Shown here: in pieces, positions 22,406 through 53,941 of the stretch | Position numbering within the stretch: the first letter of the stretch is position 1 | Layout: the number at the start of each line of letters is the position of its first letter | Source: Nitrospirales bacterium | GTDB taxonomy: Bacteria; Nitrospirota; Nitrospiria; Nitrospirales; UBA8639 | Direction: 5' to 3' | DNA length: 64,000 bases | Assembly (NCBI GenBank): GCA_963555755.3 | Contig: OY820905.2 | Location: 1,056,001 to 1,120,000 of the forward strand | Position numbers and translations under genes: made by a program | The notes under the pieces: model-generated | The model's database searches: none | What the model was told of the DNA's origin: nothing | What the model saw: the letters and a program-made list of their open reading frames with translations, nothing else

Positions 22406-23188
22406 ATGGCTTTGATATTTTCTCAACGCATTATCCTAGATACGGCAGTTGGATCACAAAAGTCCGCGCAAGCTCTTGGCGCACATGGCACAATAAAACA
22501 ATGTCTCATCACCTCCGAGGTGACCACGACTTTTTGTATCGCACCATGCACACCAATATCTTACACGTCTTTTTTGCGCCCGACTGTCGTTTCTAGGATT
22601 ATTGCTGTTTTCTTTGTCTGTCTGTTCTGGATACCCAGCCAGGAGGCGTTCGCTGGAAAAGCCTCTGAAACCATCATGCACCTTCAGGAGACGATAGTGA
22701 AAATCATGAAGGAAGGGGACACGTTGGGATACCAGGGTCGCTATAGGGTTATCACCCCTGTCATTGAGCTTACCCATGACCTTTCTGTGATTGCACGCAT
22801 TGCGATCGGAAGACATTGGAAAAAACTGACAAAGGAGCAACAGGCAGGATTTACCAGCACCTTTCAAGAACTGAGCCACTCGACGTATGCTGATCGATTC
22901 AATAGTTACTCCGGGGAACAGTTTTCACTGATTTCCGAAAAATCTCTCAAGCGAAATCGCAAGCTCGTTCAAACACGATTTGTGAAAGCCGATGGTGAGG
23001 AAATACGATTTAACTACATCCTCCACCAAGTTCAGGATCAATGGAAGATAATAAATATTATGGTGAATGGCGTGAGTGATTTGGCCCTCAAACGAACCGA
23101 ATATGGGAGCATTTTGAAAAAGGATGGCTACACGACCCTCATTGAAAAATTACGTGCCCAAATCAAAGAAAGTGCGAATGGACTATAG
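22406..23188 (+). CDS. MlaC/Ttg2D (HpnM-like) periplasmic lipid-binding protein carrying an in-frame MITE
   Basis: IARIAIGRHWKKLT..QQ..F...F, WKIINIMVNGVSDLALKRTEYGSIL; adjacent to MlaA-like and HpnN-like genes. Confidence 0.85.
   Translation: MALIFSQRIILDTAVGSQKSAQALGAHGTIKQCLITSEVTTTFCIAPCTPISYTSFLRPTVVSRIIAVFFVCLFWIPSQEAFAGKASETIMHLQETIVKIMKEGDTLGYQGRYRVITPVIELTHDLSVIARIAIGRHWKKLTKEQQAGFTSTFQELSHSTYADRFNSYSGEQFSLISEKSLKRNRKLVQTRFVKADGEEIRFNYILHQVQDQWKIINIMVNGVSDLALKRTEYGSILKKDGYTTLIEKLRAQIKESANGL
22435..22597. mobile_element. 163-bp MITE family A inside the CDS
   Basis: TIR CCTAGA.ACGGCAGTTGG / CGACTGTCGTTTCTAGG; 5-bp TSD ATTAT at 22430-22434 and 22598-22602. Confidence 0.9.
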
Positions 23189-31256: not shown

Positions 31257-32351
31257 TTGACTAGGCAACCATCTCCAGGCAATGGTCCCGGGAAGGCTAC
31301 TTCCGAGTCAAGGCCAAATCGCTTTGCCTGGGAATTAAGAAAGCCAGCTTTTTATCCCATTCAAGTCCGACATCTTGAGGTGTCCCAGGTTGCCGACATT
31401 TTGCAATCCCCTCAAAACTGCATTGCCGGACTTGTTTGCTTTGGTGAACCTCTTTCCTTTATTGGTCAAGAAACGGATCAGATTCCGGTAACAAACATAC
31501 CCCTGAGACCATTCAAGAAGGAGTCGATTGTTGAAGTGTGGTTGGGGGAGCATCCTTTTATGTATGTCCAAGAAAAGGGACTTCAAGTTGCCTGCAACCC
31601 ACATTATCTTTTTGGATCAGTGCAAGTATGGGAATCGTCAGCGCTCTCGCTAGAAGATCTCACTTGTGAAACCTATCAATTAATCTTGGATCAGATCTCG
31701 GAACTGGGCTATCCTCATCTTTTTCGTGTGTGGAATTACTTCCCAGAAATTAACCTCACAAATCATGGTCTTGAGCGATATCAGCAGTTTTGTAAAGGGA
31801 GGCATCGAGCCTTTTCCTACCGGACAAAGGAATTCCAAGCCATTCTTCCTGCAGCCACAGCCGTGGGAACTCCTAGCGGGTCTTTGCAGATTTATTTCCT
31901 GGCCGGCAAACAACCTGGCAATCATGTCGAAAACCCTCGCCAACTGAGCGCCTATGAATACCCTGACCTTTATGGACCGAAAAGCCCATCTTTTGCTAGA
32001 GCCACCATGGCTATAGCCGGGGACCATCACCACCTGTTCCTCGCCGGAACAGCAAGTATCGTAGGCCATGCCACACAACACTCAGGCAACCCGACCAAAC
32101 AAACACAGGAAACTCTTCGTAACATCGATGCTGTCGTTCGTCATACCCAAGAAATATTCCCAGTTTCATGTAGTTTGGCAGCAAGGCAATCCCTAGCAAA
32201 AGTGTATATCAGAAATCGTGAGCACTTTTGCGAGATTGAGGAAATGGTCACCAACCATCTTGGGAATTCTCTGGAAGTTCTTTATCTGCAAGGGGATATT
32301 TGTCGGAACGATCTTCTCGTAGAAATTGAAGCCGTTTTCCAGTCTTCGTGA
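31257..32351 (+). CDS. FkbO/Hyg5 family chorismatase (XanB2-like)
   Basis: RVWNYFPEIN, ERYQQFCKGR, PAATAVG, ENPRQLSAYEYP..YGPKSPSFARA, GTASIVGH, DICRNDLLVEIEA; start codon uncertain. Confidence 0.85.
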   Translation: MTRQPSPGNGPGKATSESRPNRFAWELRKPAFYPIQVRHLEVSQVADILQSPQNCIAGLVCFGEPLSFIGQETDQIPVTNIPLRPFKKESIVEVWLGEHPFMYVQEKGLQVACNPHYLFGSVQVWESSALSLEDLTCETYQLILDQISELGYPHLFRVWNYFPEINLTNHGLERYQQFCKGRHRAFSYRTKEFQAILPAATAVGTPSGSLQIYFLAGKQPGNHVENPRQLSAYEYPDLYGPKSPSFARATMAIAGDHHHLFLAGTASIVGHATQHSGNPTKQTQETLRNIDAVVRHTQEIFPVSCSLAARQSLAKVYIRNREHFCEIEEMVTNHLGNSLEVLYLQGDICRNDLLVEIEAVFQSS

Positions 32352-32389: not shown

Positions 32390-34293
32390 CAGGGCTATTT
32401 CATATTAAAGTGTAACTTTATAGATAATAAGGAATAATCGATTTAGGCTGGCTTTTTCTTTTCGTTTACGGCATACTCTTTTGCATGCCAGACGAATCGC
32501 CAAGCGGACAGCCGGACATTGATCTGAGGCAAGTCGTGGTTCGCCCAATTGTCCGAGACGAAAAGGACGCCTTCAAGACCCTTCTCGACAGACACCACTA
32601 CCTCGGTCATGCCCCGCTGATTGGCCAATCGATACAATATCTCGCCTGTGTGCAGGATCGCTGGCTGGCCTTGCTGGTGTTTGCGGCGGCGGCCCTCAAA
32701 TCGAGACCGCGAGACCACTGGATCGGCTGGCCCCCCTGTTTTCAATGGCAACGACTCCATTTACTGGCCAACAACACCCGGTTTCTCATGCTGCCGGGCT
32801 GTTCGCAAAAGAACCTCGCCTCGAAAGTCCTGTCGCTCTGCGCGAAACGGATCTCGGCCGATTGGCAACTGTACCACGGCTACCCCTTGCTCCTCTTAGA
32901 GACCTTCGTCGATCCTGCCCGCTTCACCGGGACCTGCTATCGGGCCGCCGGGTGGCACGAGCTCGGTCTGACACGAGGGTTTCGCAAGTCGAACACGTGT
33001 TATGTTCAGCATGAGAGACCGAAGCGCATCCTAGTCGTGCGGCTGCATCCCCAAGCCCGAGAGATCCTTGCACGCCCGATGCTTGATCAGCCCTATCAGA
33101 AAGGAGAAGCGCCTCAGATGAGATTGAATACAAAACAGACGGACTCCCTCTTTACGTATGTGGTGCAGCTGACCGATCCCCGCCATTTGCAAGGGCAACG
33201 GCACACCCGACGCGCCCTCACGGCGATCATGTTCTGTGCCACCTTGTGCGGCGCGCGCGGCTATGAAGCGATCTCGGACTGGGCCCAGCAGTTATCGCAG
33301 CCGATGCGCAAGCGGCTAGGCTGTACTCAGCGAGGGGGGCGCTACCTCGTCCCGAGCCGCAGCACTCTTTACCGCTTTATCACGGCCGTCGACCCCTGTG
33401 AAGTCGATACCCTGCTCGGCCGGTGGCTGGACACCTTCGGCGGGGAGGATCAGGGCATTGCCATTGATGGGAAGACCATGCGGGGGACGTCGAAGGTCCC
33501 AAGCGAACAGACCCACGTCCTCAGCGCCGTCACCCATCAAGCCGGGCGCCACCTCACCCAAAAAAAGTTCACTCCAAGACCAATGAGATCCCCTGCGTGC
33601 GGCCCCTGTTAGATGCGCTCGAGATCGCAGGGAAGGTGATCACGGCGGATGCGCTCCTCACCCAGAAAGAGATTGCCGAGTACCTGGTGCACGAACGCGG
33701 CGCCGACTTCGTCTTCACCGTCAAGGGAAACCAGCCCACCTTGAAGCACGACATTGAGGCCTTAGCGTTGCGAGCACGCCGGTGCGATTATGCCACCACC
33801 GAGAAAGGCCATGGGCAGATCACGACCCGCAGGATCTGGTGCGATGACTCCCTGAATGCCTATGTCAACTTTCCTCATGTCCAGCAAGTCTTCTGCATTG
33901 AGAGGGAAGTGACGCATCTCAAGCAGGGCCTCACGACCGTCGAAGCGGTCTGCGGTGTCACGAGTCAGTCCAAAGACAAGGCGGGGCCGAAGACCATCCT
34001 CTCGCAAAACCGAAAGCATTGGAGTGTGGAGAATAAGCAGCATTATGTGTTGGACGTCACCTTTGATGAAGACAGGAGTCAGATACGAAGTCTCAATGGC
34101 CCAATGGTCATGACCTGTCTGAGACGCTATGCCATCAGTCTCTTACGCCTGAAAGGCTACACCAATATCGCGCAGGCGTGTAGACTGCTCTGGGGCAAGC
34201 CCCATTTAGCCATCCGCATGGCCCTGCCCTGAAAAAGAGGGCACAAAAAACCTCATGGAATCCCTTGCTTATAAAAAGAATGAAATGGCCCTG
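32390..34293 (+). mobile_element. ISAs1-family element with DUF4338 domain, copy 2
   Basis: Same TIRs as copy 1; many scattered substitutions relative to copy 1. Confidence 0.9.
32485..34232 (+). CDS. DUF4338-ISAs1 transposase (ORFs 32485-33612 and 33597-34232 joined by a -1 frameshift)
   Basis: Same motifs as copy 1; A_AAA_AAG at 33561-33567. Confidence 0.88.
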
Positions 34294-36206: not shown

Positions 36207-36370
36207 CCTAGAAACGGCAGTTGGGCGCAAAAAAGCCGTGTAAGCTATTGGTGTGCATGGTGAAATAAAAAAAGTCGTAGTCACCTTCGTGGTGATGAGA
36301 CATTTTTTTATTTTGCCAGGTGCGCCAATAATCTTACACGTCTTTTTTGCGCCCAACTGCTGTTTCTAGG
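36207..36370. mobile_element. MITE family A variant truncating an IS1380 remnant
   Basis: CCTAGAAACGGCAGTTGG / CCAACTGCTGTTTCTAGG; flanks ATAAT and TTCAA do not match. Confidence 0.8.
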
Positions 36371-37188
36371 TTCAACTGGTGTGAGGAGCATGCGGTGACG
36401 TTTGCGATTGGGGGCGTGCAGGATACAGCCGTGCAGGCCGCCATTGCGGCGAGCCCTGACACTCAGGGGCAACCCTATCGGGATGGGCACCTCGCTGAAA
36501 CCGTGCATGGTATGGCCAAGACCACGCACGCCTTTCGGCTCATCGTGCTGCGCCGACCCGTGCAACAGGATCTGTTTGCCCCCGAGGCCCCCAGCCTGCG
36601 CTACACGCTGATTGCGACGAACCGAGACGGAACCCTCGAGGAGATTGTGCGGTGGTACACCCAGCGGGGCGAGACCAGCGAGAATCGCATCAACGAACTG
36701 AAGATTGGCTTTGGCAGGGAACGACTGCCGTGTGGGCCCTTTGCGGCCCATGCCGTCTTCTTTCGCATTGGCGTGTTAGCCTACAACCTGTTTGTGGTGG
36801 TCAAGTTGTTGGCGGTGCCCCATGCCTGGAGCCGGTGCCCAGTGCGTACGGGGCGGTGGCGGCTCTATCAGGTGGCGGGCAAAGTGCGCCGGCATGCCGG
36901 CGCAGTCATTCGCAAAGTGCCGCATTGGTTATGGGGCTTGTGTGAAGAGATTCGCACGCGCTGTGCGGAAGCCGCCCAGGCATAAGCCGGGGCAGGAAGC
37001 AGACGCGAGAGGCAGTATGAAAGGAGCAGTGTGCCCAGAAGGAGCCGGTTGAACCCATTGCGGCAAGGAACCCCTTGGATGCGGCCTCGGATCCAGCAAG
37101 AACATTGCTCATGCGACTTCTCTAGTGGATAACAAAGGTGGTTTCCGCCACAGAAGTCTTGTTAACAAAATCCATCGCGGATTTTGGG
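36371..37188 (+). pseudogene. IS1380 family transposase 3' remnant with probable right end
   Basis: YTQRGETSENRINELKIGFG.ERLPCG.F.A.AVFFRIGVLAYNL, RWRLYQVAGKV; stop at 36985; ATCGCGGATTTTGGG end at 37188. Confidence 0.8.
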
Positions 37189-37415: not shown

Positions 37416-38669
37416 ATGACCACGACCATGACAAGGTTACCGATCTCTCCTTCGAACGATGTGTGGAAACGATACACGATCCTCATCGTAGATGATGAGT
37501 CCTTCGTCCTGGATGAGCTTTATAGGGTCTTGACACACGAAGGTTTTTCCGTCGCCAAAGCAAGAAGTGGTGAGGAGGGCTTACAGCTCTTGAGCGAGGT
37601 GTCGCCTCAGTTGGTCATTGCGGATCAAAAAATGCCTGCCGGCATGAGTGGGACAGAGTTTTTGGCACAGGTCAAAGCCCGCCACCCTGATATGATGACA
37701 ATGATTCTCTCGGCCTATTCTGAGCCGGACTATCTCCTGGATGCCGTGAATGAAGCGGGTGTCTATCAGTATGTCTTGAAACCCTGGGATGAAACGGATC
37801 TTGTCGCTCGTGTCTCCCAGGCCCTGCAGTTTTCTCATGCGCAAGTGGAGCGCCGCCGTTTAGCTGAGGCCAATGCACGATTGCTGAAAAATATGACGCA
37901 GCGGGAATATTTCTCTCTGATGGGAGAATTCAGCGCGGCCATGTATGACCGGTTCTTTCCTGTGCTCGAAGCCAGCCTGCACGCGGAAAGGCATAAACTC
38001 AACCAGTTTACCAAGCGTTCATTCCTGTCCGCCAGTGAGGAAGGCTTTTCCCATTTGGGCATCGTGATCAGTCGGTTTGGTCAGGTGGGCAACATGTATC
38101 AGCAGCCCTCTCACTTCCGACGACTTCCCATAGAGCCGCTGGTTCACGGTTGTGTGAAGGAGGCCCAAGATGCCGTGAAACCATTAGGCCTCTCTGTTGA
38201 GTGGAAGGAGGACTATGCCCCCAATCTCCCTCATTTACTCATTCAGCCGACCGTCTTGTCGTACGCAATCAAAGCTCTCCTTGAAAATGCAGTGATTTTT
38301 AATGTGAGGAAGACGATTGATTCTCCTCGGCTTGTGTCGGTCACCGTGTCTTTCATGGCTGAGCCCGAGCCCCTCGTGCGTATTCAGGTGCAGGACAACG
38401 GGCCAGGGGTGGATCCTTTTGAACAGGACAAAATCTTTTTTCCCCTCTATTCCACGTGTCTTCCGAAAACAGCTCCCAGGATACAGCCCTATTCGCTGAG
38501 TGAATACAATTTGGGGATCTACCACCATATGGGCTTAGGGCTCTTCATTGCACGATGGGGCCTGATCCAACACCATGGCAACGTGGAATTGACCAGCTCC
38601 AGTGAATCGGGATCGGTTTTCCAGGCGGAAATTCCGATCGACCCGTCTGATCTGGCCGTCAAAATGTAG
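37416..38669 (+). CDS. Receiver domain + HATPase_c protein lacking the H-box His
   Basis: ILIVDDE, IADQKMP, KPW; LLENAV, VQDNGPG, GLGLFI; H-box region reads GEFSAAMYDRFFPVL; AAGGA before ATG 37416. Confidence 0.8.
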   Translation: MTTTMTRLPISPSNDVWKRYTILIVDDESFVLDELYRVLTHEGFSVAKARSGEEGLQLLSEVSPQLVIADQKMPAGMSGTEFLAQVKARHPDMMTMILSAYSEPDYLLDAVNEAGVYQYVLKPWDETDLVARVSQALQFSHAQVERRRLAEANARLLKNMTQREYFSLMGEFSAAMYDRFFPVLEASLHAERHKLNQFTKRSFLSASEEGFSHLGIVISRFGQVGNMYQQPSHFRRLPIEPLVHGCVKEAQDAVKPLGLSVEWKEDYAPNLPHLLIQPTVLSYAIKALLENAVIFNVRKTIDSPRLVSVTVSFMAEPEPLVRIQVQDNGPGVDPFEQDKIFFPLYSTCLPKTAPRIQPYSLSEYNLGIYHHMGLGLFIARWGLIQHHGNVELTSSSESGSVFQAEIPIDPSDLAVKM

Positions 38670-38694
38670 ATATCGCCTGCTGGGTAAGGCTTTT

Positions 38695-38879
38695 TCAGTC
38701 ATTCGTAAATGAAGGTCAACCCGGAAGAGTACCGTGTTCTCAAAACACCTGCTCAATCGAACTGCGGTATCGACTGAAATCCCCCGCCGTCCCTTAATCT
38801 TGCCCGTGATCCTATTGGGCGGGATTCCTATCGTGTGTGCTGAAGAAGTCGCTGTCGGTCCGAGAGGTTTGGTGGTCAT
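38695..38879 (-). pseudogene. Degenerate HigA-type antitoxin fragment
   Basis: IGIPPNRITGKIKGRRGISVDTAVRLSRCF resembles the HigA HTH; no toxin gene seen. Confidence 0.6.
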
Positions 38880-38972
38880 TTTTGACTACAACAACTCGCT
38901 GTAGACGATGAGTAACGTTTCAAGGACAGTCACGAGAGTCTTCTGCTCTTCCCTGTGTATGAAGGTCTCGGC

Positions 38973-39725
38973 CTATAGCAAGGGGATAAATTTTTCTAAG
39001 GCGATTCTCAGCTTCTCAAGCTTTAATGGTTTCGTGATGAGATCATTCATGCCCGCTTGCAAACAGGTTCCTCGTTCATCTTCCGCAATACTAGCGGTTA
39101 AGGCGATAATGGGAATTTTCCCGGCGCCGGCTTCCATCTGTCGAATAATTGATGCCGCTTGATAACCATCGAGTTCCGGCAGACGGCAATCCATGAAAAT
39201 GAGGTCATAGGACGTCGCTTGCCATCGATCGATGGCCGCTTGCCCATTGTCCGCAATATCCACGTGGCAGCCTAATAGTTCCAGCATGTCCACGGCCACT
39301 TGTTGATGGATCCGCTCGTTCTCAGCAAGGAGCACGCGAATCATCCGGTCTGGTTGCTGTGGTTGATGAAGGTTGGGCCAACCCTCCTTTGAAAGGGAGG
39401 GCGTCGGCTTTTTGAGGGCGACAGACTGTGAGTGATCCGTCAGTTGTGCTAAAAAGGTATTGATAATCGCCTGCATCTTATCGAGGTATTCCTCCATCAT
39501 GTTGGGCATTTCAGTGAACAGCTGTTGGGCGCGCGGTGGGATCTCTTGTACGGCATGGCCTTGTTTTATAGCCTGTTGATAACCTTCCAGTACCATGGGT
39601 AAATACTGCTTGAGGTTCCTCGCGCAGATGTTCATATAGAGTAAGGGAGAACAGATATCATGCACGAAGGTCGCCCGTATTTCCTTAATGGTTTTGTCGG
39701 ACATCTTGTCTTCCATCGCATCCAT
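38973..39725 (-). CDS. HisKA/DHp-like domain + receiver domain protein (no ATPase domain)
   Basis: ATFVHDICSPLL H-box; YDLIFMDCRLPELDGY, IIALTA, CLQAGMNDLITKP. Confidence 0.82.
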   Translation of the reverse strand: MDAMEDKMSDKTIKEIRATFVHDICSPLLYMNICARNLKQYLPMVLEGYQQAIKQGHAVQEIPPRAQQLFTEMPNMMEEYLDKMQAIINTFLAQLTDHSQSVALKKPTPSLSKEGWPNLHQPQQPDRMIRVLLAENERIHQQVAVDMLELLGCHVDIADNGQAAIDRWQATSYDLIFMDCRLPELDGYQAASIIRQMEAGAGKIPIIALTASIAEDERGTCLQAGMNDLITKPLKLEKLRIALEKFIPLL

Positions 39726-40177
39726 CTCCCCTGGTTTTAGCGTCCCGGTGCCTGGTCAAAAAAAGAATCAAGACGGTAATGGCGATGAAAGTTATAACAA
39801 GCTGAAATATCTACCGTCAAAAATAAACTCAGCCGATACTTACAAAATGTCCGTCATGACGTATGGTTGAGGGTGTTGATCGACCTGTGGACGGGATTGT
39901 TCCAGTGGGGTTGGCCTCCCAGAACCCTGGGGACTGGCTGGGAAAGAAATAGGAATGATAAAAGGCTTCTTTGCCCGGGCGGAAAAGTCCTAAAGACGTC
40001 ACCGGAGGATCAATTTCCGGACTCCGGTCCGCCGGGCGAGATTTCACCCTGTGAGGAGGGGCTGACCGGCCCTTGGAGCTAGGATGTTGTTATCAGGATG
40101 GCGATACGATGTGGCGGATGGAATGGGGCACGGAGAGCCTGTGAAAGAATTCTCTTTGCAGAAGGACCTGGTTTTTA

Positions 40178-40534
40178 CGGACCAGTTGCAATTTTGGTGG
40201 AATTGGGACCTATTCCATGGCCCACCGCAGGTCATGGGGACCGTGTTGAGGGGTGAACAGCCTGCTCAGGCGTGGCAGGAATGGCGAGATTTCTCCCAAG
40301 GGTCGAAATGACAAGAGGCGGAAGTGGTAAGGAGCAAGTCTGGTTGGATGAACAACTAGAAGGCTTCTTTCTGTCATTTCGAGTGCAAGGAGAAATCGCT
40401 TGGCCCGAAAGAACGTGACCCGGGCGGGAATGGGGGAGAGTTCTCCCAAGGGTCAAAATGACAATGGACGAGGGGTGATACGGGCGGAGTGTCATAGGGT
40501 TTCGCCTTACTCCACCAAAATTGGGATTGATCCG
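40178..40534. mobile_element. 357-bp MITE family F, copy 2 (inverted)
   Basis: Reverse complement of 2232-2588; 6-bp TSD TTTTTA at 40172-40177 and 40535-40540. Confidence 0.85.
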
Positions 40535-40997
40535 TTTTTACCATGGGTTGTTATCAAGGCCCATGCCCGTGTGGTTTGTCCTTCCAATTGTGAGTGTTTT
40601 TTCCCAGCCACGTCTGAAACCCTGGAAGGCCGTCCATGATCCCGAGCCCTTACCGGCACGCTCTGGTAAACGGCCCGAGGCTAACGGAATACCATCGGCT
40701 TCGTTCCGGTTCACTCTCTGACCCCCCTCTCCCCTTAGGCCTCAGCAACCGAAAACGTCTCATTTCATTTTAAGGTAGATAACCGTAGATACATGAAAAG
40801 TTTAACCTTCTGTCAGGACATTAGGTAAATGGCTTTAAGAACACCCATTTGGATATAGGGAAGCCTCGGTTATTTTAGGTAAGGTCCATACACTTTGTGG
40901 ATCGCGGTTTTTATTCATCCCAGCATCTCATTTTCTCATTTTCCATGAAAGTCGCAAAACGTGTGTTATCGTCAACCTCGAACGAAAGGGACAGACC

Positions 40998-43900
40998 ATG
41001 AGTCACTATCACTTAGGCATTAATCTTAGCCATGATCGCGCCGCAGCGTTAGTATCCGAGGGAAAATTTTTGACAGCGATTCAGCAAGAACGGCTGGATC
41101 GTCACAAGTACAGCCTCGGGCTTCTCCAACAATCGGTCGATGATCCCAAGGCCGTTCAACTCCCGATGGAAGCGATCCTCTACTGCCTTGAACATCACAA
41201 CCTTGACCTAGCCGACGTGGACACCATTACCGCCAACATGCCGGGAATCGATTGGAGCTCTCATATCTTAAAAAGGTGTTTACCTCAAAAGGTTGCGCAT
41301 AAGATTCGATCGATTCCCAGCCACCATCTCGCACATGCCTATAGCGCCTATTGGCCTTCCGGATTTGATGAGGCTGTGATCGTCGTCGTCGATGGCAGCG
41401 GCTCGACCCATGCACACAACACGGAATCCTATTCATTGTATGAAGGGCGAAACGAGAAGATCATCCCATTGCATACGGAATATGTCCCTGCTCATCTGGC
41501 GGAACTCTCCACTCTGGGATTTTTGTATGAATATGTCACGCGCAAGGCAGGCTTTGTGACGAAGACGGGATCCAAGCTCGCCATTCCCGAAGCGGGAAAA
41601 TTAATGGGGTTAGCCCCCTATGGGAAACACCAATCACACTGGCAGGGCTGGATACATACTAAACCTAGAAACAGCAGTTGGATCACAAAAGTCCGCGCAA
41701 GTTCTTGACGCACCTGGCAAAATAAAAAAATGTCTCATCACCACCGAGGTGACCTCGACTTTTTTTATTTCACCATGTACGCCAATACCTTACACGTCTT
41801 TTTTGCGCCCAACTGCCGTTTCTAGGCTAAAGCCAACAGTTATAGCCTGGCCATTTCCGCCTATGACATTTTTCTGGAAATCGCCGCCCTCGAAAAACGC
41901 TATGACACTCAGGAGGGCAAGGCGTATCTTCGACCCTATCTTGTGGATCTTGCCTTTAAGGTACAGAAAGAATTGGAGGAGGCCCTCTTCCATATTGTTG
42001 GTCTGGCGGTCAGACAGACAGGCATTCGTAAGGTATGCCTGGCGGGCGGTGTGGCCTTGAACTCCGTGGCTAATTATAAGCTGCTGACACAATTGGGGTT
42101 GGAAGATATATTTATCTTCCCCGCAGCTGGGGACTCAGGGATAGCCGCCGGATGTGCATTGTGGGCCTATGCCACGGAAGGACAGGGCACACAACGACAC
42201 CCATTCAAAACCGCAAACCTCGGGCGTCCGTACTCATCCGACGAAATACGACAGGCGTTGGAAAAATTTTCACATGGCCTCGACATTCACGAATGTACCT
42301 CGGCACAAATCATCGAACACTCCGCACGAGCGATGGCGAAAGGACATATCATCGCCAGATTTGCGGGAGGTTCCGAATACGGACCGCGGGCGTTAGGGTA
42401 TCGCTCAATCCTGGCGGATCCGCATTTTTCCAAAATGAAAGATATTATCAATGCCCGGGTAAAATTCCGCGAAGCCTTCCGTCCGTTCGCCCCTGTCGTA
42501 CCCGAAGAAAAGGTAGGCGATATCTTCGAGCACACCCACCCGTCACCCTTTATGTTACTGATCTCACCAATCAAACCGGAATATCAGGCACACATCCCTG
42601 GCGTATCGCACCATGATGGCACGGGACGCTTACAGACCACGACCCGTGAGACACACCCCTTTCTCTATCAGCTCTGTTGGGCCATCACGACCATCCGGGG
42701 AGGGCTACCCGTTTTGCTGAATACGAGTTTTAACATGGCCGGCCAACCGATTGTTGAAACACCCGAAGAAGCCATTGAAATGTTTTTACAGACGGATATC
42801 GATTACCTCTGTTTGGAAAACTTGTGGATCACCAAACGTGACTGCCCGGTCAAGGCCTATGAAGATCATCTGGCAACCGTCAAAAAGAATCCTCATCCTC
42901 AAGGACTCGCGCCCGAACAACCGCCGGTGACGGACCTCATGAAAAAACTCGATCGCGCGTTGTTTTTTGGAGACATGGATTAATGCCCGTGGTCCTTGGA
43001 AGAGGTAACCGCACTTTCTTCACAAGGCGGTAAATACAAGGAGACCACCCGATTATTTCCGGAGAATCCATTCCACCGTCCCTTTAGTACCCATCTGTCT
43101 TCAGGTGTTGTCTTACTATTGGATCCCATGAATCAGTCTCATTTAATTGACCTGAGTTACAAAAAGAAACCAGCCAGGTATTCCTTTAGGCAAGTGCGAT
43201 TGCTGATGGCCTTGCTGGGCAATTCTTCTGATTGCCTGGACGCATTACGGATTGAAGCACAATACAGCACATCGGAATGGGAAAAAGAAATCCATTGGGG
43301 AACACAACAACTCCAGGCGTACGATTTGCCGACGATACCTTGTAAGCCGATTCCCCCGGATGATGCTCTTTCGGCACATAACACTCACACCCTGGCCCCC
43401 TTTGAAAACGAGGAATACTCTTTACGACACATCCTGCGACAGATTCGCGATGTGCTCCTGCGCAGCGAGTATACGGAAATCCATATTTGCACACTCCTTG
43501 GTCTCGATGCCCTCCAACAAATTGACCCCACCCATTTACACTATTACAATCGTTTTGTCCTGCCTGATACCGATCTCGCAGACTTGATTCGTGTTTTCTT
43601 GTTGCGTGTTGCCCTGCCTCGTCCAAAGCTGGAGACCCTGTTCGGCCAAGCCTGTTTCCAAACCCTCAGGCATCTTGGGGTACTCATCCCACGCGGGGAA
43701 GCCTTCGCGTCCCGTATCGATCTCTATGACGTGGATGGGTTTTTTATCGGGACGGATCACCGATATATGCTCCTGGATGAAGATCGAATCGCCGAAGATC
43801 CCGTCATGTATGTCGGGTTGGATAGCCTAGGCTTAGTGAATACGGCCCCACGTGATCCAGCCAATCACCTGTTGGATTTATGCACGGGATCCGGAGTACA

Positions 43901-44983
43901 AGCGATCGTCGCTAGTCGGTATGCCAAAGAGGTCATAGGTGTGGACGTCAACCCGAGAGCGATACGCTTTTCAAGATTTAATGCCCAATTAAACGGCATT
44001 GAGAATGTCACATTTCTGAAAGGCAATCTCTATGATGCCGTACATGGCAGGTCTTTCGATGGTATTTTAGCCAATCCTCCCTTTGTTCCTAGTCCTGTTT
44101 ATGATTTGGGATTTAGAGACGGCGGTCGGCAGGGAGAGGAAATTCTTGCCCAAATCATTTCGAATGCCTCACAACACTTACGTCCTCTTGGAAAATTACA
44201 TATTGTTTCCGATTTGGTGGATCTGAATAACTATGAGTCGAAATTGAGTCACTGGTGGAAGGGTGGTCCGGCACAAACACTGATTCTTCATACGGCGGAT
44301 CGGAACGAGGTATTGTTTTCCGTCCCGCACAGTCACGCGCCGTTTGGTCAAGACTTCAAGAGTTACAATCAAGAAATAGAACGCTGGATAAACAACTTTC
44401 GACGAGCGAGACTCACTGCCGTGAATTTCGGATATATCCTCATCCACCGCCTTCTCGACACCACAGCAGGGAGTTATAAGACCCGCGTGATAAGCAGTCC
44501 TCTGAAACCGATTCACGAGCAAGTGAAACAATACTTTGAGCAGCAAGCCTTATTACGTCGTCCCGATTGTAGTCAACTCTTTCTGAGTCTGAACCAGCAA
44601 ATGGTTTTTTGCACAAAATTCCAATACGGAATCACCTGTCACCAGGTCGAATTGTGTGCCCCGGATAATCCCTATTTTACAACGTATGTGTTAACGGACT
44701 CCTTACTTGAGTTGGTCAAAGAGATTGCACGTCATCAGCCTCGGCTTGGCCTTTTCCTGGCCGGCGATCACTGTGAATGTATCCTCGATCTCATCAATAA
44801 GGGTATTCTGTTGCTTGGACCTAGGCCCCACCCCCACATGATCCAGGAGGACTGGAACGGTCATGGCCAACATTCCCTGACCGCATGGGCCCCTCGGGGG
44901 ACCATATGCCTTCCATGCAGTCTATTCAAGAGTTAGCCTCCAAAACGACTCCTACTTGCTTATCCTCCTATCTCAAAGTATAA
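40998..44983 (+). pseudogene. Disrupted CmcH/NodU-type carbamoyltransferase fused to a class I SAM methyltransferase
   Basis: ORFs at 40998, 41943 and 42996 share one frame: HHLAHAYSA, VVDGSG, GKLMGLAPYG, GGVALN, PAAGDSG, EYGPRALG, KFREAFRPFAP, LNTSFN, then LDLCTGSG and ANPPF. Interrupted by a MITE (41664-41826) and TAA (42981-42983); possible 3' frameshift. Confidence 0.82.
41664..41826. mobile_element. 163-bp MITE family A inside the carbamoyltransferase gene
   Basis: 5-bp TSD CTAAA at 41659-41663 and 41827-41831; removing it restores IHTKANSYSLAISAYDIFLE. Confidence 0.92.
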
Positions 44984-45018
44984 GGCGGGTGAATGGCGTG
45001 TAAACGGAGAAAATCGAC

Positions 45019-47229
45019 ATGGACCCTCAAAAAACCGCCCTGATACTCATCGGGTATCAAAATGAATATTTCTCGGCTGAGGGAGTCTTACGTGAGGCCA
45101 TTGAGGCTTCATCCCAGGCCACACAAATTTTGGCGAATACTTGTTATCTGGTGGACGAACTCAGGGACACTCCCGTCTTGCTCATTACCACCCCGATCGT
45201 GTTTGCCCCTGACTACCGGGAATTGGTTGATCCCATCGGAATTTTAAAATCCATCAAAGAGGCGGGCGCCTTTCAAGCCGGCACCATTGGTGCAGAGACC
45301 ATCCCGGAATTGAAAGCCTACGGGGAACGAATTGTGGAAATTTCTGGCAAGTTCGGGCTGAACGCATTTTCTAATACAAACCTTGCGTCCCTACTCCGGG
45401 CCCACGATATCACGGAAGTGGTGATTGCGGGGGTCGTCACCTCCATTTGTGTCGACTCAACGGCACGTTCTGCCGTCGAACTGGGTTTCAAAACCACCAT
45501 CCTCTCGGATTGCACCTCGGGTCGCAGTGTGTATGAACAAGATTTTTTCTGTGAGAATATATTTCCTCTTTATGCCAACGTGGTGGATCATAAGGCCTTA
45601 TTACACACGCTGAGCTTTTCCAGAACGAACTCTTCTCACCTCCCAAGCCGAGGGGACATTCAAGCCCAAATCAGTCACCGCCTGTTTGAAGAATTGGCGG
45701 CAACCGAACAACGGTATCGAACTTTGGTGGAAATACGAAACGTCGTTTTTAAATACGATCAACATGGCTGTTTGACCTTCGTCAATCCCGCTTGGGAGGA
45801 TTTGCTGGGGTACCCGATAGAGGATACGCTCGGCCGTCCTCTCACCGATTTTTTATGCGAAGAAGATCGGGAAAAGGGGCTGGCCCTCGTGACCATAGGT
45901 CCTCAAACACCAAAAAGTCGATCTGATAAGCTACGCTTTTGTCATAGTCGGGGTCATGCCCGCTGGTTTGATGTCTCTCTCAGCTTGAGTGATGATGGGG
46001 AAGGCGTTGGGTTACTTTACGATATTACCGAGCAACAGGCGGAAGAAGAACAATTACAGCATACCCTTCGCAGGACCAAGGCCATTGCCAAATCCACGTC
46101 TGATTTTCTCTCGACCATGAGTCACGAGATCCGAACCCCGATGAATGGGGTCCTCGGCATGACGGAGTTGTTATTAACCACCGAGCTTAATGAAAAACAA
46201 AAACAATATGTCGAGGCCATCAGTGTCAGCGGTGAATTTCTCCTCGCACTCCTGGACGATATTCTAGACCTCTCCAAACTGGAATCGGGCAAAATGTCCC
46301 TGAAGCGTCAACCGCTGAACATTCCTCATATGATGAAATCGTTGTACGAACTCTTCCTTCCTGAAACCACCGCGAAAGGACTTCGTCTAGACTTTGTGAT
46401 CAAGGATGATGTCCCTGTCGAGATACAGGGCGATATCACAAGACTTCGGCAAATCTTGATCAATCTGATCGGGAATGCGGTAAAATTTACCGATCGTGGG
46501 GAGGTTGAGATTTCCATCCACAAGACATCCCAAGCCATGCAAACGTTGACCTTACTTTTTTCCGTGAAAGACACGGGCATCGGGATCTCTCCAGAAAAGC
46601 AATTCACCTTATTCGAAGCGTTCACCCAAGTCGTTCCATCCACGGCACGGGAATACGGTGGAACAGGCTTGGGATTGAACATTTGTTCCAAGCTCGTCAC
46701 TCTCATGAATGGGAGGATATGGGTCGAGAGTCAGGCCGGCCAAGGAACCACGGTCTCCTTTACCATCAAGACCAAGGCACTTACTGAGAAGTCATCGGAT
46801 AAGATGGGTCAAGAGACATCCCCGCGTCTTGATCCACAGCTTGCGACACATTTTCCCGCGCGCATCCTCGTGGCGGAAGATGACCCTATTAATCAGCAGG
46901 TTATCATTGACATGCTGGCTGCAATGGGCTACCGGGCGGATATTGTCGAAACCGGCATCGACGTCGTGAAAAGATTGAACACTCACCAGTACGATGTCAT
47001 TTTCATGGATATCAAACTGCCGGAGATGGATGGGATCCAAACTACGCAACACATCTTTAAAATCATGCCGCCGGAAAGGCGTCCGTGGATTATTGCCCTC
47101 ACCGCCAATGTTCTTCAAGAAAATCGGGAACGATGCCTCGCGATCGGGATGTCCGACTTTATTACCAAACCCATTAACCCAAGGGCCTTACAATCCGCCT
47201 TAACCCGCCGGGGTACGCAAGTGACCTAG
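45019..47229 (+). CDS. Hybrid sensor kinase: isochorismatase/cysteine hydrolase fold - PAS - HisKA - HATPase - REC
   Basis: KTALILIGYQNEYF, GVVTSICVDSTARSA; FVNPAWEDLLGY; MSHEIRTPMNG; NLIGNAVKFT, DTGIG, GGTGLGL; FMDIKLPEMDG. Confidence 0.92.
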   Translation: MDPQKTALILIGYQNEYFSAEGVLREAIEASSQATQILANTCYLVDELRDTPVLLITTPIVFAPDYRELVDPIGILKSIKEAGAFQAGTIGAETIPELKAYGERIVEISGKFGLNAFSNTNLASLLRAHDITEVVIAGVVTSICVDSTARSAVELGFKTTILSDCTSGRSVYEQDFFCENIFPLYANVVDHKALLHTLSFSRTNSSHLPSRGDIQAQISHRLFEELAATEQRYRTLVEIRNVVFKYDQHGCLTFVNPAWEDLLGYPIEDTLGRPLTDFLCEEDREKGLALVTIGPQTPKSRSDKLRFCHSRGHARWFDVSLSLSDDGEGVGLLYDITEQQAEEEQLQHTLRRTKAIAKSTSDFLSTMSHEIRTPMNGVLGMTELLLTTELNEKQKQYVEAISVSGEFLLALLDDILDLSKLESGKMSLKRQPLNIPHMMKSLYELFLPETTAKGLRLDFVIKDDVPVEIQGDITRLRQILINLIGNAVKFTDRGEVEISIHKTSQAMQTLTLLFSVKDTGIGISPEKQFTLFEAFTQVVPSTAREYGGTGLGLNICSKLVTLMNGRIWVESQAGQGTTVSFTIKTKALTEKSSDKMGQETSPRLDPQLATHFPARILVAEDDPINQQVIIDMLAAMGYRADIVETGIDVVKRLNTHQYDVIFMDIKLPEMDGIQTTQHIFKIMPPERRPWIIALTANVLQENRERCLAIGMSDFITKPINPRALQSALTRRGTQVT

Positions 47230-47446
47230 GGATTGTCTTTTCTCTGTTAAGGTCAGGATTGGGGGGGATTTGGGGTCAATTACGGTGTTTTCTCTCAGAC
47301 ACTATTCTACACGAATCATCGGCTGTTTCCAGGGATTGTTCACCAGGCAGGCGGAGGATTCACCACCGCAAAATTGAGAAAACTCTCGTGCTCATAACAA
47401 TTTGAAGATCCAAACACCGGCTTCACTCGATCATTAAACCCAATTC

Positions 47447-48002: not shown

Positions 48003-48942
48003 CCTAGAAACAGCAGTTGGATCACAAAAGTCGGCGCAAGCTCTTAGGACCTACGAGAAAATAACTTGATCAATATCGCATCCAATCTTCGGGCCATCTT
48101 GGAACCTAGAAACAGCAGTTGGATCACAAAAGTCCGCGCAAGCTCTTGGCGCACCTGATAAAATACAAAAATGTCTCATCACCACCGAGGTGACCACGAC
48201 TTTTTGTATTTCACCATGCACCCCAATGTCTTACACGGCTTTTTTGCGCCCAACTGCTGTTTCTAGGTTGAACGGGCCTCAATCGAAAAACCCTCACCAT
48301 AGCTGTGCTATGCCTCGAGTGTTTCTCAATCGTTTCGTCCAAATCCGACCCAAATCTTGGCGCGATATTGATCAAGTTATTTTCTCGCAGGTCCTCAGGG
48401 CTCGCGCAAGAATAACTTCCCATTTTGGGGTGACGAGACACCTGTCTGGCAAGGCGCGAGGACTGCGCATACTCTTGGTATGTAAGGGACGAGCAACGCC
48501 GCCAGACAGGATGGATCGACGCTCAAAGATGGGAAGTTATTCTTGCGCGAGCCCTTAGGGTCCGTCACGAAATAACCGGGACAATTGGCCGAGACGATTT
48601 TGGAGCGAGCCAAGGAGCGAAGAGCGCGCATACCGGGAGTATGGAAGCGATGAGCGACGCCGGCGGAGCCCAAAAGCGTCCGGCCCTCCGGGGAGGCCCA
48701 TCTTTGGCCCGGGGCGGCGTTGCTCCTCGGTCACAGAGCCCCGCTCTGCTCCCTCGTCGCGCCTTGCCCCGATCACAAATCTGGGCCTCCCAATTGTCCC
48801 GGTTATTTCGTGACGGACCCTTAGCGCACCTGGCAAAATACAAAAATGTCTCATCACCAGAGAGGTGACCACGACTTTTTGTATTTCACGATGCGCACCA
48901 ATATCTTACGCGTCTTTTTTGCGCCCAACTGCCGTTTCTAGG
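48003..48942. mobile_element. Nested MITE cluster: outer A containing B (with inner A), C and D
   Basis: Outer A with TSD TTCAA; B 48047-48394 with inner A 48105-48267; C 48398-48554; D 48558-48820 (TIR GGGTCCGTCACGAAATAACCGGGACAATTGG); joined by TTA/TCA trinucleotides. Confidence 0.85.
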
Positions 48943-53436: not shown

Positions 53437-53941
53437 GGGCTTGTTAAAAAATGACTGGGACAACATCGCGCCTAGATTTGGGTCGGATTTGGACGTAACG
53501 ATTGAGAATAAGCCGAGGCATAGCACCGCTATGTTGAGGCGTTTTCGATTAAGGCGCGTTCAACCTAGAAACAGCAGTTGGGCGCAAAAAAGACGTGTAA
53601 GATATTGGTGTGCATCGTGAAAGAGAAAAAGTCGTGGTCACCTTTGTGGTGATGAGACATTTTTCTCTTTTGCGAGGTGCGCCAAGAGCTTGCGCGGACT
53701 TTTGTGATCCAACTGCTGTTTCTAGGTTCAAAGGTGGCCCGAAGATGGGATGGGATTTTGTCCCAGTTATTTTTAACAGGCCCTTAGGGTTCGCGCAAGA
53801 ATAACTTCCCCTGTTTGGGTGCTGAGACACCTGTCTGGCAAGGCGCGAGGACTGCGCATACTCCTTATGGAAAGGACGAGCAACGCCGCCAGACGGGATG
53901 GATCGACGTCCAAACAGGGGAAGTTATTCTTACGCGAACCC
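53437..53941. mobile_element. MITE cluster: B (53437-53783) with nested A (53564-53726), then C (53787-53941)
   Basis: A has TSD TTCAA; B and C are joined by TTA. Confidence 0.85.

Follow-up and report, generated by a model that had tools for sequence, protein, structure and literature searches.

In this work we describe a gene cassette in which a long enzyme, a carbamoyltransferase fused to a predicted amide N-methyltransferase and ending in a conserved cysteine tail, is linked to a putative receptor that has the isochorismatase fold of known hydrolases and a glycine in place of their catalytic aspartate. It lies in the window, by which we mean the whole stretch of DNA analysed, 64,000 nucleotides (G000:C1:1056001-1120000) of the 4.62-Mb genome of a Nitrospirales bacterium. 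The window copy of the fusion is a pseudogene with three lesions, and the receptor is the first domain of the hybrid kinase encoded just downstream. What the analysis establishes is how the cassette is built, where the window copy is broken, what is conserved and that the genes are linked; the chemistry and the binding are predictions. Our preferred reading, to which we give a probability of about 0.42, is that the tail of the enzyme receives an N-methylcarbamoyl group, formed by the enzyme itself, which the pseudo-hydrolase senses. More broadly, we consider it likely that the enzyme feeds the receptor in one way or another, be it through a tail-borne group, a diffusible product or direct modification. 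The features concerned are:

40998-44983, plus strand: fusion pseudogene (carbamoyltransferase and amide N-methyltransferase), located by tblastn with the intact homolog P0001
40998-41663, plus strand: carbamoyltransferase, first part of the Kae1-like domain (PF02543), with the general base His12, the HHLAH iron ligands and Asp132
41664-41826: lesion 1, a miniature inverted-repeat transposable element (MITE) of 163 bp with terminal inverted repeats, containing stop codons
41832-42980, plus strand: carbamoyltransferase, rest of the Kae1-like domain (PF02543) and YrdC-like adenylation domain (PF16861, E 9e-61)
42981-42983, plus strand: lesion 2, an in-frame TAA at a variable position, past which homologs continue in register
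43089-43358, plus strand: linker domain, three strands then three helices, an order like that of a RiPP (a peptide made on ribosomes and modified after translation) recognition element (RRE); residues 59-129 of the AlphaFold2 Nostoc model
43440-44620, plus strand: AerE/GenN-like N-methyltransferase (MTS), with NPPF at 44073-44084
about 44858-44911, plus strand: interval of lesion 3, a frameshift that displaces the conserved C-terminal tail (44924-44974) from the frame
44924-44974, plus strand: tail IxELxxKTTPTCLSSYL, out of frame in the window, Cys codon at 44957-44959
45019-47229, plus strand: hybrid kinase gene, 736 amino acids, Isochorismatase-PAS-HisKA-HATPase-REC
45019-45618, plus strand: isochorismatase-fold pseudo-hydrolase, the predicted sensor (PF00857, E 1e-35), with Gly12, Lys111 and Cys144 (45448-45450)
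45649-45732, plus strand: signalling helix, window letters DIQAQISHRLFEEL, family pattern ELxxQIQYRLxEEL
45733-47229, plus strand: PAS-HisKA-HATPase-REC output, an open frame with no membrane segment

The fusion and receptor genes are linked more often than by chance. We fetched 80 genome loci, 21 of the fusion family and 59 with ordinary carbamoyltransferases; a hydrolase-fold gene with the IG[YF]QN motif is present at 8 of the former and, one 29% match aside, at none of the latter. When whole genomes were searched, exactly one close receptor copy was found in 15 of the 21 fusion genomes; 10 of these copies are adjacent to the fusion gene (two across contig breaks) and five lie elsewhere (two near contig ends). 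We also drew at random 400 cyanobacterial and 400 gammaproteobacterial genomes, of which one was unscored for the fusion, left two centre genomes uncounted, and scored the 3 to 8 top candidates of each genome. Among the 799 genomes the fusion is present in three and the receptor in seven, and all three fusions adjoin a receptor (hypergeometric chance 4e-7, kinship ignored). The pairing that the earlier note had seen in this one stretch holds up, as homologs of the fusion co-occur with IG[YF]QN hydrolase-fold and signalling genes far above background. Gene order takes three forms, receptor-output-enzyme, enzyme-receptor-output and divergent, and linked receptors are mixed with unlinked ones in a quick tree of 88 receptor sequences, the well-supported branches forcing at least four changes. 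Methyltransferase and receptor distances correlate (Spearman 0.47 over 26 pairs, five of them assigned indirectly). Co-evolution is not proved by this, since kinship or a joint transfer would lead to the same correlation. Linked synthase and receptor genes, as in a quorum-sensing pair, are found here for a putative synthase and a putative receptor.

A sensor placed upstream of the enzyme would be another way to read this linkage: the pseudo-hydrolase would sense something from outside (a ureide, an electrophile or cyanate), and the gene of the enzyme would be regulated in response, its product being unrelated. Sensors often adjoin the genes that they control, and receptor-output pairs are commoner than the enzyme. 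However, no DNA-binding regulator recurs at the linked loci, the outputs alternate between phosphorelay and cyclic di-GMP, and the chemical match of an enzyme that makes carbamoyl groups with a neighbour related to hydrolases that cleave them would be a coincidence, so that we regard this reading as quite improbable.

The fusion gene of the window is not the one long reading frame that had been described in the earlier note. The intact homolog P0001 aligns in tblastn at 56% identity, with residues 1-1234 in one frame and the tail in another, and the reading frame of the fusion (40998-44936) is interrupted by the MITE, the in-frame TAA and the late frameshift. The MITE is flanked by a 5-bp target duplication (41659-41663 and 41827-41831). 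The repair proposed in that note (deletion of 41664-41831, mending of the TAA at 42981) deals with two lesions that are real, but it missed the third, the frameshift at about 44858-44911. An assembly error was considered as the origin of the lesions and rejected: from 41799 to 47300 the window shows 0 differences from the contigs of runs X1 and X2, both of which may be source samples, hence the stop and the frameshift are not assembly errors. RNA run X9 gives short low-depth pieces on the kinase and one on the methyltransferase, which do not demonstrate transcription.

The two enzyme types that the earlier note had recognised, a NodU/CmcH-type carbamoyltransferase and an NPPF-motif methyltransferase, are indeed joined (Carbam_trans_N/C, MTS, NPPF at 44073-44084), and full-length homologs of the fusion exist, with 271 long matches at E 1e-10 among 6,511 candidate proteins of at least 1,139 residues. 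Among the matches listed, the named carriers are cyanobacteria, gammaproteobacteria and Desulfogranum. Intact copies, typically of about 1,250-1,330 amino acids, are found in Nostoc sp. NIES-4103, Calothrix sp. 336/3 and Desulfogranum mediterraneum, and Thiocystis violacea DSM 208 has a split form. The 120 homologs listed (1,159-1,326 amino acids, 44-54% identity to the window methyltransferase half) all carry both carbamoyltransferase domains and MTS. In two Chromatiales genomes (L013:9926-12721 and L028:9935-14101) the fusion is naturally split after the linker domain, into a 775-amino-acid carbamoyltransferase with linker domain and a separate methyltransferase gene; the separate methyltransferase of L028 has 551 amino acids and bears the tail. 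No transmembrane segment is predicted in any fusion enzyme or fused receptor.

The carbamoyltransferase half has the class III architecture, Kae1-like then YrdC-like, with PF02543 and PF16861 both above cut-off, and its relatives in the PDB are TobZ, GdmN and NovN (E 1e-73 to 1e-92). In 30 aligned fusion homologs H109, H113, D132 and D324 are invariant and H12 is present in at least 90%; the general-base His and the two-His/two-Asp iron site are kept, the window copy included. The residues with the same roles in GdmN are H27/H133/H137/D156/D333, as given in the accessible part of PMC9633730. With class III carbamoyltransferases (TobZ, GdmN, NovN, NodU) the present enzyme thus shares both domains, the His base and the iron ligands; it differs from them in that a methyltransferase and a Cys tail are joined to it and no natural-product cluster surrounds it, and its C-terminal piece scores 130 bits against a NodU equivalog cut-off of 1000. 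This half is likely to perform an ATP- and carbamoyl-phosphate-dependent transfer.

In the methyltransferase half, the Tyr at 43809, the Asp at 43821 and the NPPF motif align with Tyr137, Asp141 and Asn231/Phe234 of AerE and are invariant across 120 rows. In AerE these four residues are essential for amide methylation, according to the available text of PMC9060474. Their conservation supports the N-methylation of an amide or carbamoyl nitrogen, as the earlier note had proposed, and from it an N-methylcarbamoyl product is predicted. The AlphaFold2 model of the second half of the Nostoc homolog is confident, with a mean predicted local distance difference test (pLDDT) of 89.5; its top fold match is GenN (Z 28.0, root-mean-square deviation (rmsd) 3.0, 297 residues aligned), followed by AerE (Z 25.9, rmsd 3.1, 344 aligned), and HemK2 is well below both (Z 15.4). 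The fold is therefore common to AerE/PoyE (7RC2) and GenN (5TYQ), and, on a core like that of HemK behind a helical N-domain, the Tyr-Asp-Asn-Phe catalytic set is common with AerE, GenN reading NSPT where the fusion has NPPF. Identity to AerE and GenN is only about 18-20%, however, the fusion has extra winged-helix-like domains, and no proteusin precursor or epimerase gene is nearby as for AerE; the enzyme would work in an AerE-like way without being a member of AerE/PoyE. For the two winged-helix-like domains, a search for RRE identity (Pfam at E 5 on 20 segments, PDB profiles, hhalign) gave nothing significant; the linker domain, taken within a longer stretch, has no PF05402 match, and hhalign gives it a probability below 1% against a four-sequence PqqD profile. 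The second such domain matches DUF7782 in Atlas at 0.80-0.82, which is a lead only.

The tail is more conserved than the catalytic core that precedes it. Its strict pattern, IxELxTKTTPTCLSSY[LI], is found in 117 of the 120 homologs, the remaining three being one-residue variants, and the tail Glu, Thr, Pro and Cys are invariant in all 120 alignment rows. Mean conservation is 0.96 for the nine-residue tail core (TTPTCLSSY), against 0.77 in the core of the methyltransferase and 0.32 in the preceding linker. The tail is missing from the three stand-alone methyltransferase relatives that have readable ends (L207:7990-9777, L223:1051-2550 and L225:1309-3054; a fourth is unreadable); the one in L223 adjoins, on our reading, an asparagine-synthetase-like open reading frame (ORF). 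In the Nostoc model pLDDT is 80 for the first half of the tail, which is docked, and 41 for the half with the Cys, which is free; the superposition with GenN extends to model residue 662, so the docked half sits on the methyltransferase domain. In the HypF/HypE system a carbamoyltransferase loads a conserved terminal Cys as carrier (PMC12130793 and PMC4506123, in the parts available). By analogy a role of the tail Cys as a carrier arm is suggested, with the differences that the predicted carrier Cys is on the same polypeptide and is not the last residue, and that the second enzyme would methylate where HypE dehydrates.

Could the tail instead be a fused precursor with a leader and a core, which undergoes modification before it is cleaved off as a peptide product in the manner of borosins? 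Enzyme-fused precursors exist (PMC11285071), RRE-carbamoyltransferase fusions are mentioned in PMC12710340, both sources being available in part, a flexible linker stands before the tail, and the methyltransferase is AerE-like. But it is HemK/AerE-like rather than borosin-type, no protease or transporter gene recurs, and in the fetched loci the tail motif is never encoded as a separate ORF except through the present frameshift. The tail is moreover near-invariant, unlike cores, which diversify, and the isochorismatase pocket is small for a decapeptide; this possibility strikes us as very improbable.

A free product is a more serious alternative, and is the one favoured in the earlier note: the fusion would carbamoylate and N-methylate a free primary metabolite, the resulting urea or carbamate would diffuse and be sensed in a quorum-like way, and the tail would be merely a lid. 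The characterised carbamoyltransferase relatives TobZ, GdmN and NovN act on small molecules, as does GenN, the top fold match of the methyltransferase, and the fold matches also include the carbamoyl N-methyltransferase Asc-Orf2 (9L4Q). Small ureides are bound by relatives of the receptor, and genomes with the receptor alone are more numerous than those with the pair, as would be expected of eavesdroppers. Such a product leaves unexplained a fusion-confined tail, behind a variable linker, that is more conserved than the catalytic core, and the methyltransferase has the AerE NPPF and Tyr/Asp pair, not the NSPT of GenN. At the 21 fusion loci no further biosynthetic, acceptor-supply, export, protease or proteusin precursor/epimerase gene recurs, so that the fusion does not sit in conventional biosynthetic clusters, in agreement with the earlier note, whose free quorum-sensing-like product finds at the same loci neither acceptor nor exporter nor any evidence of diffusion. 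The invariant Cys tail and the peptide-acting AerE-like fold are at least equally suggestive of an acceptor that is a peptide or protein, and we hold a diffusible signal to be possible, if unlikely.

The predicted receptor begins the 736-amino-acid kinase at 45019-47229, for which the domain order given in the earlier note, isochorismatase fold-PAS-HisKA-HATPase-REC on the strand of the fusion, was confirmed. The model of the isochorismatase fold is confident, and the Asp-Lys-Cys triad of active isochorismatase-family hydrolases is incomplete: the catalytic Asp is replaced by Gly in the window domain and in all 120 top matches, which were selected with a Gly-type profile, and Lys and Cys are kept. 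In BiuH, Asp36 tolerates no replacement, as stated in the available part of PMC5806882. Of 39 divergent Gly-type representatives (above 150 bits), 21 have kept Lys and 32 Cys; Lys is present in 47 of 53 rows of Asp/Glu type, taken at any score. Such erosion of Lys in Gly-type rows is expected if catalysis has been given up. The domain is thus probably inactive and not an enzyme, although the database labels of its family are 'cysteine hydrolase' or 'nicotinamidase-related amidase'. Its nearest solved structure is the uncharacterised 3KL2 (E 2.7e-47), and the best solved matches of known function are hydrolases of ureides, e.g. biuret and ureidoacrylate. Fold, Lys and Cys are common to BiuH, TrtA, RutB, 3KL2 and the receptor; of these, the receptor alone has Gly at the position of the catalytic Asp (3KL2 has Glu there) and a signalling helix, which follows in the next gene or is fused.

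From 96 loci, 69 distinct pairs were recovered in which the gene next to the receptor opens with ELxxQIQ[YH]RLxEEL; the remaining loci are truncated, are duplicates or escaped the pattern. The outputs behind the helix are PAS-kinases, hybrid kinases, GGDEF-EAL and GGDEF proteins and a nucleotide cyclase, and among 23 longer receptor matches 16, the window's included, have receptor, helix and kinase fused; five of the 15 besides the window's lie on contigs equal in length to one that bears a fusion enzyme. Two longer proteins join the hydrolase domain and the same helix to TIR domains. P0241, P0242, P0252 and P0263 have single or tandem Gly-type hydrolase domains, the helix and TIR-like domains, recognised as TIR by Pfam in P0241 and P0252; the TIR-fused proteins are probably eukaryotic, judged by their look alone. 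The Gly-type hydrolase domain and the conserved helix are therefore predicted to form what is likely a new sensor module. H-NOX and NosP/FIST are likewise small cytoplasmic sensor genes placed before varied kinases and cyclases, and LuxR solos are a case of receptors outnumbering synthases; the present receptor has no homology to H-NOX, NosP/FIST or LuxI/LuxR and has no haem domain. Compared with 15 fused homologs, the window kinase misses one residue just past the helix, which suggests that it may be decaying too. In an AlphaFold2 single-chain prediction of the window receptor, helix and PAS domain (predicted template modelling score 0.58) the helix has a pLDDT of 44-51 and its docking is unreadable, and a complex prediction of two Nostoc receptors with two partner helices scored 0.01 against a mark of 0.32, which counts neither way.

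The invariant Gln of the partner helix raises the possibility that the fusion puts a mark, carbamoyl or methyl, directly on this Gln-rich helix or on the receptor itself, a CheR-like tuning with the true stimulus elsewhere. AerE and HemK methylate peptide Asn and Gln side chains, cyanobacterial partners have an E-L-x-T stretch like that of the tail, all parts lack membrane segments, and many receptors work without the enzyme. Yet the helix is conserved equally at loci with no enzyme gene nearby, and the E-L-x-T likeness is short and extends beyond the linked loci; we judge such a mark rather improbable.

The preferred reading, tail-borne N-methylcarbamoyl, would proceed in five steps. Given its family and residues, the TobZ-type domain would make carbamoyl-AMP from carbamoyl phosphate and ATP and transfer the carbamoyl group, and the methyltransferase, with its AerE residues, would methylate the carbamoyl nitrogen. 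The acceptor, in what is the weakest step, would be the tail, most likely its Cys, acting as a carrier arm for the enzyme as the terminal Cys of HypE does for HypF. The pocket of the pseudo-hydrolase would then be filled by the methylcarbamoyl unit, either passed on directly or set free in a small urea or carbamate, and the pseudo-hydrolase, having no catalytic Asp, would not turn it over. Finally, as gene order and natural fusions suggest, the ELxxQIQYRLxE helix would couple the receptor to interchangeable outputs. Several observations weigh against this reading. Six of the 21 fusion genomes, which are draft metagenome-assembled genomes, gave no receptor match. Receptor-output pairs occur without the enzyme in four of the seven receptor-bearing random genomes and at 19 of the 22 metagenome loci with adequate flank (the fusion was seen at 12 of 80 metagenome receptor loci, and at 3 of the 22), so that the cue of the receptor may be a different one. 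The fold score of GenN, which methylates amines of small molecules, is as high as that of AerE, part of the tail overlays the GenN C-terminus and could thus be a structural lid, and the RRE-like domain is without sequence support. The receptor Cys is lost in 7 of the 39 divergent Gly-type rows, hence covalent capture is not universal. A more specific version takes a transferable acyl group, N-methylcarbamoyl (a methyl-isocyanate equivalent), as the message, which would pass from the enzyme's own Cys tail onto the Cys of the dead hydrolase; the latter would then be a new receptor family wired to kinases, cyclic di-GMP and cyclic AMP/cyclic GMP enzymes and to TIR domains in proteins of eukaryotic look. 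We consider this version, taken as a whole, doubtful.

Each part of the cassette has known relatives. Carbamoyl transfer and N-methylation are also combined in the pathway of Asc-Orf2, the ansacarbamitocin carbamoyl N-methyltransferase, whose fold match is middling (Z 13.1), but there by separate genes of large clusters that act on a scaffold, with no cognate receptor. The physostigmine PsmE/PsmA and Nod-factor NodS/NodU pairs likewise combine the two reactions as separate cluster genes. The crocagin cluster also combines carbamoylation with N-methylation, according to the accessible text of PMC10070186. In the open-literature listings searched, nothing was found that describes the cassette or a sensor built on the isochorismatase fold.

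The surroundings of the cassette in the window contain the following features:

22435-22597, 36207-36370, 41664-41826, 48105-48267 and 53564-53726: copies of the 163-bp MITE
31257-32351, plus strand: chorismatase gene, FkbO/Hyg5-like
32485-34232, plus strand: ISAs1-like transposase in two frames, with a DruA-like domain at its N-terminus
36347-36985: DDE_Tnp_1_4 transposase fragment
37416-38669, plus strand: REC-HATPase receiver protein
38535-38879, minus strand: short HigA-type antitoxin-like ORF
38973-39725, minus strand: REC receiver protein
40283-40464: direct and inverted short repeats of about 32 bp

The MITE family is abundant, with about 90 left ends in the genome and target duplications that are mostly TTAAA-like; a genome BLAST with the copy at 41664-41826 gave 242 matches, 81 of them near-full copies. 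The repeats at 40283-40464 lie in the 1.3-kb gap upstream of the fusion, and since similar letters also stand beside MITE reads elsewhere, they are probably a second dispersed repeat. The chorismatase gene, 9 kb upstream, was not seen at other fusion loci. The two receiver proteins that the earlier note had placed upstream do exist, but not as a conserved unit: they have no full-length relative in the fetched loci and were ruled out as members of the module. Their genes are convergent and on our reading they look like complementary half-kinases, the first with REC, a dimerisation helix without His and HATPase, the second with an H-box-like helix containing HD, then REC, and no ATPase. The antitoxin-like ORF, which has a similar counterpart in locus L014, lacks a Pfam match at E 1e-5 and is probably a remnant. 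Elsewhere in the genome, three more NodU-type carbamoyltransferase genes (G000:C1 near 816464, 2115081 and 4300766; 29-32% identity) are ordinary. In 40 relatives of the host neither the fusion nor the kinase gene was found with either query, which suggests lateral acquisition.

In conclusion, two consequences stand even if the proposed mechanism is wrong. The Gly-type isochorismatase domain with its fixed helix behaves, across phyla, as a portable sensor module, and this predicted sensor is tied to an enzyme of predictable chemistry, which brings a receptor and a candidate source of its ligand together. If the tail is the acceptor, N-methylcarbamoylation would be a new protein modification used for signalling. 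If the enzyme does feed the receptor, the cassette would represent an unstudied kind of chemical signalling, common to distant bacteria.

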